Source: a virus | DNA length: 64,000 bases | Reading direction: 5' to 3' (one strand) | IMG/VR virus record: IMGVR_UViG_3300009173_000010 | Coordinates: 8,807-72,806 of that record | Part shown: in pieces, positions 3,001-41,157 of the stretch | Numbering within the stretch: the first letter of the stretch is position 1 | Layout: the number at the start of each line of letters is the position of its first letter | Program-made: the position numbers and the translations under genes | Notes under the pieces: model-generated | What the model was told of the DNA's origin: nothing | Seen by the model: only the letters and a program-made list of their open reading frames with translations | Databases searched by the model: none

Positions 3001-4879
3001 GGATGCAACTGGTAATGTTACAATTGGCGGTACTCTAGCAGTAACCGGTAATACAACACTAACAGGCAACCTAACTATAAACGGTACAACAACAGATGTT
3101 TCAACTGTTAATACAGTAATTGAAGACGCTGTTATTATGGTCAACAATGGCGAATCTGGTGCAAGCGTTACAGGCGTTTTCTCTGGTATCTCAGTTGACC
3201 GTGGTTCGTCAGCAAATGCCCATATGGTATTTGATGATGGACAAGATCGTTGGGAATTCCTAACAGGCCACGACACAATTGCTTCAGCCTCACTTGGCAA
3301 CGTAGCATTTGGTACAGTCGGTGCAGGTACATGGCAAGGTACAGCAATTGCTGACACATATGTTGCTAACGATCTAACAATTAGTGGTGGTACAGTAAAC
3401 AACTCAGTCATTGGTGGTTCAACTGCCGCGGCTGGTACATTTACAACACTTGGCTTTGATACACTAGGTTCTGCTGTTGATATGGGGAACCAAAATCTTA
3501 CTAATGTTGACATTGATAGCGGTGCTATTGATGGTACAGTAATTGGTGCCGCTTCGGCAGCCGCAATTACAGGTACTACTATTACAGCAAGTTCCTCATT
3601 AGTAGGTACACTAGGTACAGCATCTCAAACTAATGTTACCGGTCTCGGTACAATTGGTACAGGTGTATGGCAGGGTACAGCAGTAGCCGCAGGCTTCGGT
3701 GGTACCGGTATTGATACTTCAAGTTCAACTGGCGCAGTTCGCGTAGACAGTGGTACTTGGTCTGTAGGTGATGTAAGCCTAACAGCAGACGTATCTGGTA
3801 CACTTCCAGTTGCAAATGGTGGTACTGGTATTACATCAGGAACAACTAATCAGTTCTTGAAGTTTACAGGTTCTACAACAATTGGTGCAGGCTATGCAGA
3901 AGACCTCTATGCTAATGATGTTAAAGTCTTTAGTGCAAGTGGTGCAACAACCTCAGGTGCTGGTGAAGGTGTAAAACTAACCAACGCTTCCGGTAAGGCA
4001 TACTTCCGTTCAGTGAATACAGCAGGCTCAGGCGACGTTGATCTATATCTCGGCGCTCAAGACTCTGGTGACGTTGTTATTGAAGGTACAGGTAATGGCG
4101 TAGTTAAAGGCGATAACGATCTCGACTTAACAGTACGAGGTGGTGATTCCTCTGCCGCAGACGCTGGTGATTTAATTCTCTCCGGTGGCAACGGCACAGG
4201 CTCAAATGCCTCTGGTAATGTATACATCCAGGGCGGTTTGGGTGGTTCTGCTAACGGTAATGTACAAATTCGTGATGCAAATGGCTTAGAAGTATTGAAA
4301 TTCACAGAGACAGGAAGTGCTGTCAATGAGATGACAATTGCTAACGCGGCCACATCAGGTACACCAACCTTAAGCACAACAGGTAGCGACACAAACATTA
4401 CATTGCTTATCAGTCCTAAGGGTTCGGGCGTTATTAACGTTCCAGCATCTTATGCGGCACGAGCAGGTTTTGGCACAAACTCACTAGCAACAAAAGAATA
4501 TGTTGATAATAATTCTTCAACAGAAACTTTTGCTAGACGTGCGTCGTTCACAGCCAATAGTTCAGCAAATGATTTTGCTGTTGGTACTATTAACTCAGGT
4601 ACAACAAACTATATTAATCGAGTAACAGTAGCCGTTACAACTGCTTTAAGCGGTGGTAGCGTATCTGGCGTTCGACTACATGATGGTACAGCGTACTTGA
4701 CCGCTCTAGATGATTGTGATACATCAGAAACAGGAACTTATGTTATTGATCTTCCAACATCAACAGCAACAGCCGCAAGTGCGGTACTTACAGCAAAAGT
4801 TGTTCAGAGCAATGGCACAACTGCCTCTGTTCCAACAGCAGGCGTTGTAGTAGTAACAGCACAGTGGGTGAAAGTATAA
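2..4879 (+). CDS. Giant Gly/Thr/Ala-rich repetitive tail-fibre/virion fibre protein (5'-truncated; frame is open from base 2, upstream of the ORF-track start at 227)
   Basis: Open frame from base 2 (NASGAPTRATDFDADSEVTAGAFTFVEEGT...). 12 copies of a V(D/N)I(N/D)xGAIDGTxIGA-type motif. Phage fibre motifs 'ITIEDPLMLL..GFVVERG..LLWDESADEF', 'GTLPVANGGTG', 'LATKEYVD'. Confidence 0.8.
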   Translation, partial: NASGAPTRATDFDADSEVTAGAFTFVEEGTTNADNGFVLTTDGTITVGTTAIAFAQFSGAGSIIAGAGLTKSGSTLNVIAGTGITVNANDVQISASYAGQNTITTLGTVATGTWNGTGIANAYVDNDLTISGGTVDNSIIGGTTPVAGTFTTLTANTSLVGTLGTAAQGSVTSLGTLTALNVDNLNLNGNAITSTDSNGNIDLTPHGVGEVNITKVDIDGGAIDGTIIGANSAVAGTFGALTSTGTSTHASVDINGGAIDGTNIGAASVGTGAFSTISATGTTTGVAANYSGAVGVDGNFDVATNKFTVAAATGNTVVAGTLGVTGLSTLATVDVGGGAIDGTIVGAASAAAGTFTALTATGTSTLPVINGSGAWTNTGTLTAGTVDINGGAIDGTNIGANAQGTGRFSSLQADTLAGALNASSQAITNVNIDSGAIDGTPIGANSVSTGAFGALTSTSHVSSGNISGVDGTFSGNLAVTGNIVGSGNLTISGDTVTANVTTITIEDPLMLLSSSAADAGTVDAGFVVERGSSANVALLWDESADEFAAISTTDTGTTAGNVTIAAYADFKAKDVQAGGALTAAGATTLSGALTVSGGGAVALGASALTGSGAWTHTGTLTAGTVDINGGAIDGTAIGAASASTGAFSTLSATGTSTLTTVDINAGNIDNTVIGASTAVAGTFAALTATGTSTLSTVDINAGAIDGTAIGANSVSTGAFSTISATGAITGDLTGDVAGNVTSTGTSTFTTVDINGGAIDGTNIGANQVGTGHFSTLGATGTLTGVAANFSGAVGVDGNFDVATNKFTVNATSGNTQVAGTLGSTGAITASAGVTGDLTGNVAGNVTSTGTSTFTTVDINGGAIDGTAIGANSASTGAFSTLSATGTTTGVAANFSGAVGVDGNFDVATNKMTVAAASGNTTIAGTLGVTGAITGALTGNVTGNVTGDLTGNSAGTHTGAVSGNVTSTGTSTFTTVDINGCAIDGTIIGANAAVAADFTTMDATGNVTIGGTLAVTGNTTLTGNLTINGTTTDVSTVNTVIEDAVIMVNNGESGASVTGVFSGISVDRGSSANAHMVFDDGQDRWEFLTGHDTIASASLGNVAFGTVGAGTWQGTAIADTYVANDLTISGGTVNNSVIGGSTAAAGTFTTLGFDTLGSAVDMGNQNLTNVDIDSGAIDGTVIGAASAAAITGTTITASSSLVGTLGTASQTNVTGLGTIGTGVWQGTAVAAGFGGTGIDTSSSTGAVRVDSGTWSVGDVSLTADVSGTLPVANGGTGITSGTTNQFLKFTGSTTIGAGYAEDLYANDVKVFSASGATTSGAGEGVKLTNASGKAYFRSVNTAGSGDVDLYLGAQDSGDVVIEGTGNGVVKGDNDLDLTVRGGDSSAADAGDLILSGGNGTGSNASGNVYIQGGLGGSANGNVQIRDANGLEVLKFTETGSAVNEMTIANAATSGTPTLSTTGSDTNITLLISPKGSGVINVPASYAARAGFGTNSLATKEYVDNNSSTETFARRASFTANSSANDFAVGTINSGTTNYINRVTVAVTTALSGGSVSGVRLHDGTAYLTALDDCDTSETGTYVIDLPTSTATAASAVLTAKVVQSNGTTASVPTAGVVVVTAQWVKV
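640..3560 (+). repeat. Internal coding repeats of the fibre gene (e.g. near-identical ~65-bp blocks at ~2213 and ~2528; ~60-bp blocks at ~2348 and ~2663)
   Basis: Direct DNA repeats GGTAACGTAACATCAACTGGTACTTCAACTTTCACAACCGTAGATATTAACGGTGGTGCAATTGA and ACTGGTGTTGCCGCTAACTTTAGTGGTGCAGTAGGCGTTGATGGCAACTTTGATGTTGC. Confidence 0.85.
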
Positions 4880-8089: not shown

Positions 8090-9391
8090 ATGGCCATTTA
8101 TAAAACAACTAAAAAATCTAAAAAACGTAGACCTCGTAAAAAAACAGACCTCGGCGAGTCCCCCAATTGGCCAGTATTTTTAGCCGACGGCCCTACGGAT
8201 ATGGCTATATATTCATATCATTCGCATTCTATGCAATGGTATAACTATAATCATAAAGCCAAAGATTTGCGTAAAGATGTTGAATTGTATCTAAAAAAGA
8301 ACAAATATTCTAAAAAAGACATTAATGCTTGGAAGGCCGCAGATGTTTGGCGTACAGGTGTTACTGTTTCAGGTTTATGTAAAATGATGAATGAAGGAAT
8401 GATTGAGGTTCTACCTAATCCGTATAAACAAGATAATAAGTATAAACATTCTTATGATAAAACTTGGGAGCCTGTATCTGGACATATATGGATACAAAAC
8501 AAACTTGCTGAAATAATTGATCATGGTAAAAAAGCAATTGCTGAAAACAAAGTAGTTGAAAAAGAAAATAAATTAAAAGCACCCCCAAAAACAATTCAAG
8601 AACGTATGCACGAAAAACTTTTAGAATTTTTAGAAGAAACCGAAGGTGCAATAGAAGATTTTTTATATGGTGACAAGCCTTTTGTATCAGATTATAGTAT
8701 GTATAAACATCTTACAAGAGACGCATTGCCTCCTAAAATAGCATCGCAAATTGTTAAAATATATGAAGGCGAGGCCGAAGAATACCAAGAATTAGCAAAG
8801 CCTTGCACAGAATCACAATTAAAGAAAATGACTGAGCAGGATCAAGATTATCATATGCAACTGTTAGAAGGACATTCTCATACGACAAAACCTCAAGCAA
8901 AAAAAATTGCTACGTTTTATGAAACCCTTATTGCTGATGTTAATATGTATATTGATTCTGCTAAAGTTTCGAGAACACCTCGTAAGAAAAAAGCACCAAC
9001 AAAAGAAAAGTTAATAGCAAAACTTAAATTTAAAACAAATGATGAAAAATATAGGATAGCAAGTATTAATCCAATAGATATTATCGGTGCTGATGAATTA
9101 TGGGTGTTTAATACTAAAACACGTAAACTTGGAAAGTATATAGCATTGAATACCGATCCTATGGGACTTAAAAGAGATGGTTCGGGACTATCAGTAAAAG
9201 GTACTACAATTTTAGGTTTTCATGTTGAACAAAGTATTCAGAAGACTTTGCGTAAGCCTGAAGAACAATTAAAAGAATTTACAAAATCAGGAAAAGTAAA
9301 ACTTCGAAAGTTTCTCGAAAAAATTAAGACTACAGATATTAAATTAACCGGTAGAATTAATAACGAGACGATTATACTCAAAGCCAGTTAA
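8090..9391 (+). CDS. Conserved basic jumbo-phage protein of unknown function
   Basis: 433 aa ORF with GGAG RBS; C-terminal 'LWVFNTKTRKLGKY...VKGTTI...QKTLRKPEEQL...GRIN' block typical of large myophage hypotheticals. Confidence 0.6.
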   Translation: MAIYKTTKKSKKRRPRKKTDLGESPNWPVFLADGPTDMAIYSYHSHSMQWYNYNHKAKDLRKDVELYLKKNKYSKKDINAWKAADVWRTGVTVSGLCKMMNEGMIEVLPNPYKQDNKYKHSYDKTWEPVSGHIWIQNKLAEIIDHGKKAIAENKVVEKENKLKAPPKTIQERMHEKLLEFLEETEGAIEDFLYGDKPFVSDYSMYKHLTRDALPPKIASQIVKIYEGEAEEYQELAKPCTESQLKKMTEQDQDYHMQLLEGHSHTTKPQAKKIATFYETLIADVNMYIDSAKVSRTPRKKKAPTKEKLIAKLKFKTNDEKYRIASINPIDIIGADELWVFNTKTRKLGKYIALNTDPMGLKRDGSGLSVKGTTILGFHVEQSIQKTLRKPEEQLKEFTKSGKVKLRKFLEKIKTTDIKLTGRINNETIILKAS

Positions 9392-37827: not shown

Positions 37828-38790
37828 ATGGATATAACTTTGTTATGGATGATCCTAGGTTTTATGTTAGCCGCATATTCTGTTGTTGCTAATGATAGTG
37901 TACAAACCTTAGGTCCATGGCTAGCATCAAATTCAGAAAAATTTAAATGGTATACTTTATGGGCCGCCGCTTCGATTGGTCTATTAATAACTATGTGGTA
38001 TGGGTGGTATATTAATGCAGGTGATATATCATTTGGTAGATTAAATAAAATACCATTTCAAGAAGTGCAATGGTATCATGCTACAGCACCAGCCATACTT
38101 TTATTGTTAACGCGAATAGGCGTTCCAGTTTCAACCTCATTCCTAGTGTTATCGGCATTTGCTAGTACATTTGTATTGGAAAAAATGCTTGTAAAATCTG
38201 TTATGGGTTATGCATTGGCCGCAGTTGTTGCGTATTGTTTATGGATTGTTTTAGAACGATTAATTGATGAAAAACATGATAAAGTAAAAGAACACCATAA
38301 AAGATATTGGCGTGTTGCTCAATGGGGCACAACTGGGTTTTTATGGTATACTTGGTTATCACACGATATGGCAAATATTGCTGTATTCCTCCCACGAGCA
38401 TTGTCTATAGAATGGATGCTTTTTATATCTGTTGTATTTGTAGTGTTCTTAGGATATACATTTCGAGAACATGGCGGCAAAATTCAAGAAATTGTTTTAG
38501 AAAAAACAGGCACTAGGTATGTTCGATCAGCAACAATAATTAATTTAGTTTATGCATTCATATTGTTATTCTTTAAAGAATTAAATGACATTCCTATGAG
38601 TACAACTTGGGTGTTTGTTGGATTGCTATGTGGACGAGAACTTGCTATATCAACTGTTATGGAAAATTATAAATTCAAGCACGTATTTCCAATTGTAGGA
38701 AGAGACTTTCTTAAAATGATGTTAGGATTAATAGTTTCAGTTGGAATAGTATTGGCAATACATTATGTAATTATACCTTACGGTTATTGA
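37828..38790 (+). CDS. Multi-pass membrane protein, PiT/phosphate-sulfate permease-like
   Basis: About 9-10 hydrophobic segments; duplicated signature-like motifs 'VANDSVQTLG' / 'SHDMANIA' and 'PVSTS' / 'PMSTT'. Confidence 0.65.
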   Translation: MDITLLWMILGFMLAAYSVVANDSVQTLGPWLASNSEKFKWYTLWAAASIGLLITMWYGWYINAGDISFGRLNKIPFQEVQWYHATAPAILLLLTRIGVPVSTSFLVLSAFASTFVLEKMLVKSVMGYALAAVVAYCLWIVLERLIDEKHDKVKEHHKRYWRVAQWGTTGFLWYTWLSHDMANIAVFLPRALSIEWMLFISVVFVVFLGYTFREHGGKIQEIVLEKTGTRYVRSATIINLVYAFILLFFKELNDIPMSTTWVFVGLLCGRELAISTVMENYKFKHVFPIVGRDFLKMMLGLIVSVGIVLAIHYVIIPYGY

Positions 38791-38797
38791 TCAATTG

Positions 38798-38805
38798 TAT
38801 AAATA
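38798..38805 (+). promoter_or_regulatory. Late promoter for the aaRS-like gene and tRNA
   Basis: TATAAATA. Confidence 0.55.
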
Positions 38806-38862
38806 AAATAAAAGAAAATTTAGTTCTATTCCGAGCAAAATTTTTTTGACTGGAGAAAACAT

Positions 38863-39693
38863 ATGACACAACTTATTAATCCGGAGAAATTCACGGATAG
38901 CGTGGGCCGTTTACGGTCCTTTTTTTTGAACAAAGGATTTCAAGAAGTACATACGCAAAATCGTTTAAGTATATTAGCGGCATGCGAAGATCCAACAACT
39001 GTCTCAACATATAATTACGCCGGCCAAGTTTGGCCGTTACCGCAAACAGGACAGATGTGGTTAGAATACGAGTTACTTACTAAGCCTGAGGTTCCGGGCT
39101 TTTTTTGTGTCTCAACATCATATAGGCAAGAGCCTAATGCTATACCTGGTAGGCATGATCTTATATTTCCTATGTTTGAATTCGAAATGCCAGGGGATAT
39201 TAATGACTTATATCGAATGGAATTGGATTTATGCGAAGCAGTAGGCTTTTCATCAATTGATGCAATTACATCAAAAGATTACACTGATTGGTCAGCGGAA
39301 TTTGGCGTTGAAGAATTAACACATGCAGAAGAAACTGCAATGTATGAAAAGTACGGTAATGTACAAATGATTCGAAACTTTCCAAATTACACAAGTCCAT
39401 TTTGGAACATGAAACAAAATGGTGATGGAACAGCCGCAAAAATTGATGTAATTATTTGTGGACAAGAAACAATTGGTTCTGCAGAACGGTCAGCAGATAC
39501 AACAGAAATGCATGATATGTTTCACACAATTAGTGATGGGCAATATGCTAGTTTGTTGCATGGAACGTTTGGCAAGGACAGAGTTAACAAAGAATTGGAC
39601 GAATTTTTAAGTCATGATTTTATACCACGTGTAGGCGGCGGCATTGGAATGACTAGATTTATTCGTGCAATGGAAATGTGTAACTTGTTCTAA
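38863..39693 (+). CDS. Class IIb aminoacyl-tRNA synthetase catalytic-domain-only paralog (Asp/AsnRS-like; archaeal-type asparagine synthetase-like)
   Basis: Motif 1 LRSFFLNKGFQEVHT; LPQTGQMWLE; motif 2 SYRQE...RHDLIFPMFEFE; ETIGSAER; motif 3 GGGIGMTR. 276 aa with no N-terminal OB-fold anticodon domain. Confidence 0.8.
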   Translation: MTQLINPEKFTDSVGRLRSFFLNKGFQEVHTQNRLSILAACEDPTTVSTYNYAGQVWPLPQTGQMWLEYELLTKPEVPGFFCVSTSYRQEPNAIPGRHDLIFPMFEFEMPGDINDLYRMELDLCEAVGFSSIDAITSKDYTDWSAEFGVEELTHAEETAMYEKYGNVQMIRNFPNYTSPFWNMKQNGDGTAAKIDVIICGQETIGSAERSADTTEMHDMFHTISDGQYASLLHGTFGKDRVNKELDEFLSHDFIPRVGGGIGMTRFIRAMEMCNLF

Positions 39694-39971
39694 AGAATTT
39701 GTTCCGGAGTGATGGAATTGGTAGACATGCTGGGCGGTTTACTCAGTGTCCTTGGCAGGGCGTGAAGGTTCGAATCCTTCCTCCGGAGCCAGTTTTTAAT
39801 TTTAAGACTTAGGCTTCTTCGGCTTCTTTTTTTCTTTCTTGGGTTTGTCTCTATTTTTACTTTCCATCCTTGTTTTCCTATGGTTCGTGTTGTATCTACA
39901 TCTCCGAACTCGCCCATACTTTTACCAGTTTGTATTTGCCTACTATAATCGTATGGATCTTTACCGTTCAT
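39690..39971 (-). CDS. Small basic hypothetical protein (3' end uncertain; as read it runs antisense through the tRNA)
   Basis: Start overlaps the stop region of the CCA gene; an alternative frame ends PKKEKKKPKKPKS* at 39802, before the tRNA. Confidence 0.35.
   Translation of the reverse strand: MNGKDPYDYSRQIQTGKSMGEFGDVDTTRTIGKQGWKVKIETNPRKKKRSRRSLSLKIKNWLRRKDSNLHALPRTLSKPPSMSTNSITPEQIL
39703..39791 (+). tRNA. Non-canonical long-variable-arm tRNA, anticodon GTT (Asn-like), encoded CCA
   Basis: Acceptor TCCGGAG/CTCCGGA + G73 + CCA; D-arm ATGGAATTGGTAGACAT; anticodon stem CTGGG/CTCAG with loop CGGTTTA; V-arm GTCCT-TGGC-AGGGC; T-arm GAAGG-TTCGAAT-CCTTC. Confidence 0.85.
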
Positions 39972-41157
39972 CGATCACTGTTGATAATAATTCTTCTTTG
40001 CTAGGTTTGTAGTTTTTAGACTTCCATTCGTCTCGTAACTTTGTTAGTAAAGCACCCATGTTAGGACCAGGTTTTACATCTGCACTAATTAAGTCTTTTC
40101 CTGTTACAGGAAATTCTGGTACTTGCCAACTTCTAATATGATTTGCAATAGCATCTTTGTCTTGTATTTTAGCAAGAGCATAAACAAAATATTGATGAGT
40201 TTCATCAACTAAAAATTCTTCTGCACTTTGCTGTGTTAGAGGTGTATTTTTAAATTCAGTTAAAAAAGATAAAAGTTGCATTTCTGCATTTGATAGTTTC
40301 CATGCATTACCTATCGCGTCTACATCTTTTATATTACGCATAAGACTTGCTAAAGGAACAATAGGACTTTGCATTGTACTAACTTTTTCTGCTAGTGCAA
40401 TATCATCTAATGGTAGATTAATATTTTTTGTAACGCCTGTTTTTTCTAAATGTACTAATATGTCTTTTACATTGTTACCTAACAGTATCTTTTGCATTTC
40501 CATCCATATACGTTCACCAGAAATTTGTGTTAAACCTTTAACATTGCTTTTTATAGCATCTAATGTATCTTTCTCCCAAGTAGGATTATTAATGCGTCCT
40601 TGGAATCTAAAGTAGCGCAAAATTCTTAAATAATCTTCTTGTATACGTTGTTCCGGTTCACCTACAAATTTACTTACTTTATCTTGTAAGTCATTTGCTC
40701 CATTAAAATAATCATATACTGTACCGTCTAAATCTAATGACATAGCATTGTATGTTAAATCTCTGCGTTTAGCATCTTCTTCCCAACTACGTATAAATTC
40801 AACAGTAGCGTGTCTACCAGTATGTTCTGCGTCTGCACGTAACGTTGTAATTTCTAATTGTTCTTTATTAATTACAGCGGTAATTGTTCCGTGCTGTAAT
40901 CCTGTTGGAATATACTTAATATTGCCCTTTTCAAACATTTCAACCATTTCGTCTGGTGTAGCATCTGATGCTAAGTCTGTATCTTTGGGCAATTTGCCAA
41001 GCATTAGGTCTCGAACTGCACCACCAACAATACGTAGTTCAAATCCGTTTTTATGAAAAAGGTTACCGAGTGAAACTACACCAGCAGTAAGAATTTGTTT
41101 AAATTCGTCACTATCTAGTTTTTCTTGTGCCTCAACTAAAAATTCTAATGCTCTCAT
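39961..41157 (-). CDS. cca: tRNA nucleotidyltransferase (class II CCA-adding enzyme)
   Basis: VGGAVRD..DTD, GLQHGTI, EITTLR, EDAKRRDLTYNAM, FVGEPEQRIQEDYLRILRYFRF, ISGERIWME, PVTGKDL; start revised to MRALEFLVE (TAAATA-N5-ATG). Confidence 0.93.
   Translation of the reverse strand: MRALEFLVEAQEKLDSDEFKQILTAGVVSLGNLFHKNGFELRIVGGAVRDLMLGKLPKDTDLASDATPDEMVEMFEKGNIKYIPTGLQHGTITAVINKEQLEITTLRADAEHTGRHATVEFIRSWEEDAKRRDLTYNAMSLDLDGTVYDYFNGANDLQDKVSKFVGEPEQRIQEDYLRILRYFRFQGRINNPTWEKDTLDAIKSNVKGLTQISGERIWMEMQKILLGNNVKDILVHLEKTGVTKNINLPLDDIALAEKVSTMQSPIVPLASLMRNIKDVDAIGNAWKLSNAEMQLLSFLTEFKNTPLTQQSAEEFLVDETHQYFVYALAKIQDKDAIANHIRSWQVPEFPVTGKDLISADVKPGPNMGALLTKLRDEWKSKNYKPSKEELLSTVIDER

Follow-up and report, generated by a model that had tools for sequence, protein, structure and literature searches.

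A stand-alone synthetase-like gene and a long-arm tRNA with asparagine identity form a conserved cassette of marine T4-like phages

Background

The class IIb enzymes asparaginyl-tRNA synthetase (AsnRS) and aspartyl-tRNA synthetase (AspRS) read the anticodon and the discriminator base of their tRNAs, and the identity elements of tRNA-Asn are the GUU anticodon, G73 and the U1:A72 pair. In ordinary tRNAs position 33 is U and position 37 is a purine, and both positions matter for decoding, for modification of the loop and for recognition by nucleases. Class II catalytic cores also occur as stand-alone proteins, among them AsnA, the archaeal AsnRS-like asparagine synthetase and EpmA/PoxA, which pass an aminoacyl-adenylate to an acceptor other than tRNA; we know of none that is tied to a tRNA gene or fused to PyrD or PyrF. 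Here we describe a locus that joins elements of both kinds. It lies in a 64,000-nucleotide stretch of viral DNA (the window; positions 8,807 to 72,806 of IMG/VR virus record IMGVR_UViG_3300009173_000010, a 72.8-kb record that is ~20% complete), in which a gene for a stand-alone class IIb catalytic core, here called X, is followed directly by a tRNA with Asn identity elements on a Leu-type, long-arm body.

Both components have been visible in GenBank since the deposition of the cyanophages P-SSM2 and P-SSM7, where they are labelled 'tRNA ligase' and 'tRNA-Asn', and Sullivan et al. 2010 (PMC3037559) count the 'tRNA ligase' of two of 16 cyanophages among the sporadic, host-like genes. A literature search, with supplements outside its scope, found no study that deals with the X-RNA pair, the unusual traits of its RNA or what the X family does. 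New here are a family-wide description of the RNA (free positions 33 and 37, a class II body with Asn identity), its two-way linkage with X, the exclusion of a neighbouring CCA-type enzyme from the unit and the pyrimidine context of X in cells.

A sequence-only reading of the window had described a core-only enzyme, a 9-nt gap, a long-arm tRNA with GUU, G33 and U37, and a CCA gene facing it, all of which is correct. Its interpretation, that an anticodon-blind Asp/AsnRS paralogue, the tRNA and the CCA enzyme make up a dedicated and possibly non-ribosomal tRNA system, is partly supported by the analyses below; the roles that it suggested for the RNA, namely an Asp/Asn carrier outside the ribosome, a GatCAB substrate or a decoy for anticodon nucleases, are each possible.

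Results

Two-way linkage of X and the RNA

Relatives of X were found in more than 595 stretches of IMG/VR, of which the best 80 were used. In 72 of these 80 loci (72/79 assessable, since locus L055 ends at the X gene) a tRNA of the same family lies directly 3' of X, two of the 72 being cut by the contig end, and the spacing between gene and RNA is 5–12 nt in most relatives. Seven loci (L016, L019, L020, L021, L023, L034 and L039) lack a family RNA 3' of X when searched with the covariance model R1 described below. The Prochlorococcus phages P-SSM7, P-SSM2 and P-SSM5 have X relatives that are 59–62% identical and annotated 'tRNA ligase', each with a long-arm tRNA-Asn within ~10 nt of the 3' end of the gene.

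The reverse comparison started from the tRNA. A pattern describing the tRNA alone matched at least 120 IMG/VR stretches, and 80 loci were assessed, some of them on contigs that also belong to the X-based set. X lies within 300 nt 5' of the tRNA in 68 of these 80, and five are too near the locus edge; the seven loci without X comprise three non-tRNAs, three RNAs of another type and a single family-like tRNA (L239).

In a quick FastTree phylogeny of 160 protein rows, rooted at the midpoint, an 85-row clade (support 95) holds 75 of the 76 tRNA-linked rows together with 10 rows that have no RNA nearby, while all 72 cellular-type rows fall outside this tRNA-linked phage clade. The linkage is two-way and arose once, and the X-RNA pair is a conserved cassette of marine T4-like phages. 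The proposal of the sequence-only reading that the RNA is a purpose-kept partner of the adjacent gene is thus supported across the phage clade. X occurs beyond the cassette in the huge phages LR756501 and LR756508, with no family RNA anywhere in either record; what R1 matches in them are ordinary tRNA-Leu genes, and they contain one 74-nt tRNA-Asn.

Several observations on individual cassettes may be recorded here. The tRNA of L239 (IMGVR_UViG_3300012000_000008, ~1703–1790), which has U1:A72 and the loop CTGTTAA, is among the loci assessed the only family-like long-arm GUU tRNA without X upstream. In P-SSM2 (L002, AY939844.2) the tRNA-Asn is annotated at 164094–164179, within open reading frame (ORF) PSSM2_205, whereas ARAGORN and the family model both place it at 3813–3902 of the locus, approximately 162082–162171 of the record and straight after the ligase gene; the annotation looks displaced by ~2 kb. 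Three loci (L188, L192 and L244) contain tRNA-like 5' halves with the same Leu-type D arm, in which the sequence diverges after a position in the anticodon stem; their loops read TGGTTAT or TAGTTAA and are followed by a long unrelated stretch, and they may be interrupted tRNAs. In the metagenomic protein P0315 (614 aa) a GIY-YIG/NUMOD3 homing-endonuclease module is fused to, or read through into, the X domain from its 5' side, which hints at movement of the cassette.

An atypical tRNA family with fixed Asn identity

Twenty-five downstream RNAs were aligned, and R1 was built from this alignment. All 500 of its 500 pair cells are paired and 16 of the 20 pairs have changed on both sides; none of 500 shuffles was as good, and slid controls were 42–56% paired. 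The RNA is a real, selected tRNA family with structure far above chance. R1 also cross-matches ordinary phage tRNA-Leu genes, at 57–71 bits.

Base counts were taken over 62 distinct complete RNA sequences. Four features are conserved, namely the anticodon (GUU in 61/62, GUC in the other), the U1:A72 pair (61/62), the discriminator (G73 in 62/62) and the CCA end (encoded in 59/62). At position 33 the counts are U 44, A 9, C 7 and G 2, and at position 37 they are U 50, A 9, C 2 and G 1. The variable region measures 6 nt in 2 sequences, 13–18 nt in 33 and 27–38 nt in 27, and forms a hairpin of at least 3 bp in 57 of the 62. The X protein tree requires a minimum of 11 changes at position 33, 10 at position 37 and 13 in the arm-length class. 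G33 of the window is thus a rare state (2/62) of a position that is free across the family, and most members share its U37. The combination to which the sequence-only reading had drawn attention, Asn identity elements on a long-arm body of Leu type, is conserved, and the departures at 33 and 37 are family traits and not errors. The covarying long-arm GUU tRNA 3' of X homologues for which that reading had proposed a check is present, mostly with U37 and rarely with G33.

ARAGORN calls the window RNA as an Asn (GTT) tRNA, the sole tRNA in the whole window. Its acceptor stem TCCGGAG/CTCCGGA gives U1:A72 and is followed by G73 and an encoded CCA; the D arm has a 3-bp stem and the Leu-type loop GAATTGGTAGA, the anticodon stem is CTGGG/CTCAG, and the T stem GAAGG/CCTTC contains A50:U64 and A51:U63. 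It departs from a class I body in its 17-nt paired variable arm, its 3-bp D stem, G33 and U37. The Rfam search of the window's own record gave an RF00005 match of 39.7 bits (cut-off 29), and an E-value search of the window RNA retained only a weak tRNA-Sec match, at 24.7 bits.

The unusual loop letters are real. At least 90% of sampled words from positions 39300–40100 are present in 11 seawater sequencing runs. Contigs from the DNA runs X10, X11 and X3 span 39703–39791 with no differing letter at 39735–39741, and a near-identical contig from the RNA-library run X5 has the same letters there (as an assembled contig it says nothing on transcription). Runs X3 and X5 may be the source sample, while X10 and X11 are not flagged as such. 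Because these contigs agree, G33 and U37 are not assembly slips, sequencing or assembly error is ruled out, and the loop is not an ordinary Leu/Ser loop.

Record G098 (158 kb, the record of L006; loci L316/L299) contains both a family RNA (with C33) next to X and a canonical 75-nt tRNA-Asn with the loop CTGTTAA, which sits in an array of 12 ordinary tRNAs; it is the only one of five records scanned with both. The presence of a canonical tRNA-Asn in the same record therefore favours a special role of the family RNA over that of a plain decoder.

Some members deviate further. Position 55 of the T loop is C in 3 of the 62 sequences: L011, L014 and L022 form a subgroup with the T loop TCCGA, which has C at the near-universal U55. 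L022 is also the sequence with the anticodon GUC, here combined with G37 in the loop CTGTCGA. At E ≤ 0.001 the Rfam tRNA model does not report the family RNA of G017 or of G098 (records of L008 and L006), which ARAGORN and R1 detect in both records; some annotation pipelines therefore likely overlook family members.

Protein X and its family

Residues 16–269 of the window X match PF00152, the class II D/K/N core, at 44.4 bits (cut-off 25; profile positions 31–291 of 308), and no anticodon-binding oligonucleotide-binding (OB)-fold or other Pfam domain was found in it. Matches to curated synthetase models are far below threshold, at 24.9 bits for NCBIfam asnS (PRK03932; cut-off 414) and 21 bits for aspS (cut-off 353), as are those to archaeal-type asparagine synthetase A models (17.7 bits against 322 and 16.8 against 389); no match to EpmA was found. 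A profile of 34 X members searched against the PDB matched AsnRS and AspRS weakly (E 4e-7 to 5e-4, e.g. 2xgt_A and 9m5m_A), with LysRS next and no AsnA or archaeal asparagine synthetase chain at E ≤ 10.

Residues R88, E90 and R209 and the motif GGGIGxTR265 are invariant in the X family. In one HMMER alignment the motif-2 loop reads EPNAIPGRH in X against EKSRT-RRH in AsnRS, with fewer basic residues, and in the QxxQxxLE segment of the substrate pocket X has Leu-Glu like AsnRS where AspRS has Lys-Gln, residues which we take to have the pocket roles described for those enzymes. X keeps the ATP- and carboxylate-activating residues of class II enzymes, and may provisionally be regarded as an enzyme that adenylates aspartate or asparagine (Asx). 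The family is large, with at least 8000 clusters at 90% identity (all scored ones matched) and 855 clusters at 50% identity (E ≤ 1e-3); a search of the ESM Atlas returned the phage family's own clusters and nothing else.

Phage and cellular members are 57–77% identical to the window X over their full length. Of 276 columns, 113 are conserved (≥85%) with the same residue in phage and cellular X, with one conserved difference past the N-terminus, and the median net charge of phage X is −20 and that of cellular X −11. As the conserved columns are shared and the charge is strongly acidic, both forms would have the same activity and phage X would have gained no RNA-binding surface. X is probably not a tRNA synthetase.

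The C-terminus of X varies among phages. It ends in -AA in 12 of 69 distinct phage proteins (...FALAA, ...ALAKAA, ...VKLAA), those of L036, L038, L040, L053, L056, L060, L061, L062, L064, L070, L074 and L079, and the window X ends in ...CNLF. These ends resemble the C-terminal end of the ssrA degradation tag. In eight phage loci (L028, L030, L047, L048, L056, L057, L064 and L066) ARAGORN finds a transfer-messenger RNA (tmRNA) gene no more than 3 kb from the cassette, with a tag that ends in ...ALAA, and several phages whose X ends in -AA also encode a tmRNA.

Cellular relatives of X

Species genomes yielded 384 stretches with a relative of X. Among the best 80 of these, eight behave as phage contigs binned into metagenome-assembled genomes and 72 are cellular. 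The 72 cellular proteins are 57–64% identical to the window X, are named 'amino acid--tRNA ligase-related protein' at NCBI and come from many Patescibacteria as well as Dependentiae, Rickettsiales, Bacteroidota, Alphaproteobacteria, Gammaproteobacteria and one cultured Pasteurellaceae. A family RNA lies beside cellular X in none of the 72 loci; the tRNA genes found close to it are of ordinary types, for Gln, Lys, Thr and Arg.

In Patescibacteria, X has two conserved neighbours, a true tRNA dihydrouridine synthase (Dus, 14 loci) and DnaX. Among L104–L156 there are patescibacterial loci in which the order FtsQ-like gene, Dus, X, DnaX and tRNA-Gln(UUG) is kept across several classes.

Of 13 X-bearing genomes, six encode AsnRS and seven do not, and GatB was found in all four AsnRS-less X-bearing genomes tested. 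A role of X as a replacement for AsnRS is ruled out by the six genomes that have both.

Association of X with pyrimidine synthesis

Twelve of the 72 cellular loci have genes for PyrD, PyrE or PyrF, verified with Pfam, no more than 2 kb from X; the gene order varies, and the loci belong to Bacteroidota, Alphaproteobacteria, Dependentiae and Pasteurellaceae; the Phocoenobacter cluster consists of pyrD, X, pyrF and a small phosphoribosyltransferase gene. X is also fused to such enzymes, in a 661-aa protein (DHO_dh plus X) and a 588-aa protein (X plus OMPdecase). Eight of 11 longer X clusters combine DHO_dh with the synthetase core, and a ninth has them in the other order.

The usual entry into the pathway is largely missing from the X-bearing genomes. 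Aspartate carbamoyltransferase (ATCase) scored above cut-off in 0 of 13, compared to 14 of 14 control genomes; CarB was found in 2/13 and dihydroorotase models scored above cut-off in 1/13 and 0/13, and PyrD and PyrF are each present in 10/13 (one PyrD match being weak). The same pattern appears within lineages. In a sample of 81 genomes from a Bacteroidota order, X is present in three, all without ATCase, while ATCase is present in 70/81; in the second sample, of a family (71 genomes), X is present in two, both without ATCase, and ATCase in 56/71. Over both samples PyrB occurs in 0/5 X-bearing versus 126/147 X-less genomes. When the two starting genomes are left out, all three remaining X-bearing genomes are among the 24 of 150 that lack ATCase (hypergeometric P ~0.004); these three have PyrD, which is adjacent to X in genome G040.

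A related pattern is seen in phages. In a set of 50,697 phage records, P-SSM2, P-SSM5 and P-SSM7 are the only cultured phages that carry X, and the same three are the only cultured ones with pyrE; Sullivan et al. 2005 (PMC1079782) had already reported pyrE in P-SSM2.

Features of the locus and the CCA-type neighbour

The coordinates of the locus are given in Table 1. A promoter and terminator scan of positions 38600–40100 found nothing above chance near the X-tRNA unit and no promoter-like site in the spacer, and because a 9-nt spacer is too small for a promoter, X and the tRNA are likely to be co-transcribed.

Table 1. Features of the X-tRNA locus in the window
Feature	Coordinates	Strand	Source
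Gene X, stand-alone class IIb (Asp/Asn/Lys-type) synthetase catalytic core, 276 aa	38863..39693	+	ORF list, Pfam
Spacer from X stop codon to tRNA position 1, 9 nt	39694..39702	+	Sequence
Long-arm tRNA with Asn identity set (U1:A72, G73, GUU, encoded CCA)	39703..39791	+	ARAGORN, Rfam, 91.3 bits to family model R1
Anticodon loop CGGTTTA: C32, G33, G34 U35 U36, U37, A38	39735..39741	+	Sequence
Variable region, 17 nt with 5-bp hairpin, class II type arm	39747..39763	+	Sequence
CCA-adding-type (class II) nucleotidyltransferase gene, converging on the tRNA	39964..41157	-	Pfam, NCBIfam

The convergent nucleotidyltransferase matches PF01743 (PolyA_pol head) at 120.7 bits and PF12627 at 43.6 bits. Its top NCBIfam match, PRK13299 at 224 bits, is under the cut-off of 290, and CCA-adding and A-adding or poly(A) enzymes are indistinguishable at this level. 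No homologue of it was found in the flanks of any of the 80 IMG/VR X loci. The CCA enzyme, which the sequence-only reading had counted as part of the system, is thereby ruled out as a member of the X-tRNA unit; its position beside the tRNA is a peculiarity of the window's phage, outside the conserved unit.

Three further features of the neighbourhood are noted. An antisense ORF of 93 aa (39690–39971, minus strand) crosses the window tRNA and is most likely no gene. Just 5' of X, a gene on the plus strand (37828–38790) encodes a 320-aa membrane protein with a sub-threshold match to a PHO4 phosphate transporter (29 bits against 33.7), homologues of which (63–74% identical) lie near X in L019, L037, L062, L073 and L091. 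In arrays adjoining the cassette of L078, L080 and L081, ARAGORN calls a tRNA-Ile (TAT) of 93–94 nt, unusually long for tRNA-Ile.

Discussion

A proposed role for the cassette

The explanation that we tentatively prefer, at a little short of an even chance, is that X is a metabolic Asx-activating enzyme which feeds pyrimidine synthesis, and that the RNA is an atypical Asn tRNA charged by the host, the two being tied by co-expression. The pair would then be a mobile two-gene transcription unit of marine T4-like phages. X itself would be an ATP-dependent, adenylate-forming enzyme with the AsnRS/AspRS fold that no longer charges tRNA and that, in cells, works with the last steps of uridine monophosphate (UMP) synthesis. 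The absence of ATCase from the X-bearing genomes and the fusions to pyrimidine enzymes are consistent with a reaction in which X most likely converts aspartate or asparagine to dihydroorotate, or to the compound directly before it, with no need for carbamoyl phosphate or ATCase. Its product would enter the pathway at PyrD, and candidate co-substrates are ammonia with CO2, urea, or carbamoyl-aspartate as the acid. In phages X would serve as an auxiliary metabolic gene for pyrimidine supply.

The RNA, which is a real tRNA, would be made from the X transcript and hence be expressed only along with an Asx-consuming enzyme. We propose that it is charged by the host and not by X, either by AsnRS, which needs GUU and G73, or through the route of non-discriminating AspRS and GatCAB, which uses U1:A72. 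It may act as an atypical Asn tRNA that is independent of modification or resistant to nucleases. The freedom of positions 33 and 37 and the swapped body would fit a tRNA that evades nucleases or modifying enzymes directed at the loop, or one freed from work on the ribosome; to our knowledge, no nuclease that targets tRNA-Asn has been described in the hosts.

Several findings weigh against this proposal. There is no convincing PyrD or PyrF in three X-bearing genomes (G001 and G002, both Patescibacteria, and G004, Rickettsiales). Neither pyrE nor pyrD nor pyrF was found in the window's own record, pyrE was above cut-off in none of five other X-bearing IMG/VR records, and G017, the sole one of the five searched for pyrD and pyrF, lacks both; all of these records are fragments, 20–67% complete. 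The two huge phages with X likewise have no pyrE, pyrD or pyrF above cut-off. The Dus gene beside patescibacterial X suggests that a tRNA-related role is still alive. In addition, the near-exclusive two-way linkage, the Asx theme shared by protein and RNA and the two tRNAs of G098 are better explained by a direct functional tie than by co-expression, and 18 of 62 RNAs without U33 and 52 of 62 with a pyrimidine at 37 would be an unusual outcome of selection for decoding.

Alternative explanations

A non-ribosomal carrier role of the RNA is possible, though we consider it unlikely. On this explanation the RNA would carry Asx for X or regulate it: it would be loaded by the host's AsnRS or by a non-discriminating AspRS, its odd loop and body would keep it off the ribosome, and X would use the aminoacyl-RNA or sense its charging, with cellular X acting likewise on ordinary tRNA-Asn. 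It would account for the linkage being nearly exclusive in both directions, for the relaxation of 33 and 37 while GUU, G73, U1:A72 and CCA stay fixed, and for the coexistence in G098 of a C33 family RNA with a canonical tRNA-Asn, and it is in keeping with the AsnRS-like Leu-Glu pocket (not the AspRS Lys-Gln) and with the tRNA-modifying Dus adjoining patescibacterial X. However, cellular X has no dedicated RNA beside it, 10 X rows nested in the phage clade have no RNA nearby, and no surface change specific to the phage clade is seen in X, a very acidic protein whose motif-2 loop is poor in basic residues. By our own reasoning there is also a chemical objection, as we know of no chemistry that links alpha-esterified Asx to pyrimidine ring formation.

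That X is an anticodon-blind mini-AsnRS or mini-AspRS which reads the acceptor end (U1:A72, G73) and charges its own RNA as a dedicated or orthogonal pair seems distinctly unlikely. The class II catalytic motifs are kept (PF00152, with R88, E90, R209 and R265 invariant), AsnRS and AspRS are the nearest solved relatives, the acceptor-end features of the RNA are invariant and 7 of the 13 X-bearing genomes have no AsnRS. Against this, AsnRS is already present in the other six, the score of X is far under every curated synthetase cut-off (24.9 against 414), the protein is acidic and has lost basic residues in motif 2, and cellular X has no special RNA and is instead fused or adjacent to PyrD and PyrF, complementing the absence of ATCase. 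The view of the sequence-only reading that the protein is an anticodon-blind Asp/AsnRS charging the RNA is disfavoured on the same grounds, namely a cellular X that has no such tRNA, and is linked to PyrD, PyrE and PyrF where ATCase is absent, and the strongly acidic charge of the protein.

It is improbable that X makes free asparagine without tRNA, as AsnA and the archaeal AsnRS-like enzyme do, and that the cassette is a module supplying Asn and extra tRNA-Asn to an AT-rich phage: the core-only architecture with an AsnRS-like pocket, the Asn identity of the RNA and the weak NCBIfam matches to archaeal-type asparagine synthetase A (17.7 and 16.8 bits) agree with it, but no AsnA or archaeal asparagine synthetase is among the PDB profile matches at E ≤ 10, 7 of 13 X-bearing genomes have no AsnRS and free Asn would therefore be unusable in translation there, and the PyrD and PyrF fusions, the missing ATCase and the odd loop and body of the RNA are left unexplained.

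A bolder version of the pyrimidine proposal, to which we give only a slight chance, is that X is an entry into pyrimidine synthesis independent of carbamoyl phosphate and ATCase (Asx plus ATP to dihydroorotate), which in marine phages is run on or gated by a dedicated, non-decoding, host-charged tRNA with Asn identity. If true, this would be a tRNA-dependent step in nucleotide metabolism, akin in kind to the use of Glu-tRNA in haem synthesis.

Significance

Gene X is among the commoner unexplained genes of marine phages and has been annotated merely as 'tRNA ligase' since 2005–2010. If X is indeed an Asx-activating enzyme of pyrimidine synthesis, a testable function would be available for a large bacterial family of synthetase-like proteins, found in many Patescibacteria and in several free-living Bacteroidota and Alphaproteobacteria, and genomes that have PyrD, PyrE and PyrF without ATCase or carbamoyl-phosphate synthetase would gain a candidate for the missing start of the pathway. 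The range of phage auxiliary metabolic genes for nucleotide supply would also be extended. The RNA would represent a natural tRNA family in which U33 and a purine at 37 are dispensable while anticodon and acceptor identity are fixed, and such a family could reveal the real need for positions 33 and 37 as well as non-ribosomal or defence-related uses of tRNA.

Comparison with known systems

X shares the PF00152 catalytic-core fold with AsnRS and AspRS, and its QxxQxxLE segment is AsnRS-like. Unlike these enzymes it has no OB-fold domain, its scores are ~25 bits where the cut-offs are 340–414, its motif-2 loop is less basic and the neighbours of its gene in cells are metabolic, not translational. 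By sequence it is no member of the AsnA, archaeal asparagine synthetase or EpmA families either (17.7 bits against 322, and no EpmA match); the functional analogy that we favour for X is nevertheless with core-only paralogues of the AsnA/EpmA type.

The family RNA has GUU, G73, U1:A72 and an encoded CCA in common with bacterial tRNA-Asn, of which G098 carries a canonical phage copy, and differs from it in the long paired arm, the 3-bp D stem, the Leu-type D loop, the free position 33 and a position 37 that is mostly U and not A. In its D arm, long variable arm and overall body it is like bacterial class II tRNA-Leu. The discriminator of tRNA-Leu is A73, whereas the family RNA has G73 and a GUU anticodon, with a Leu, Ser or Tyr anticodon in 0 of 62 sequences.

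Phage tRNAs with changes in the anticodon loop have been proposed by van den Berg et al. 2023 (PMC10264068) as an escape from host anticodon nucleases in which the anticodon itself is kept. The family RNA resembles those tRNAs in keeping its anticodon while nearby loop positions depart from the host-like state, and differs from them in that U33 and the purine at 37 are the positions hit, its body is of another class and its gene is linked to that of a single enzyme.

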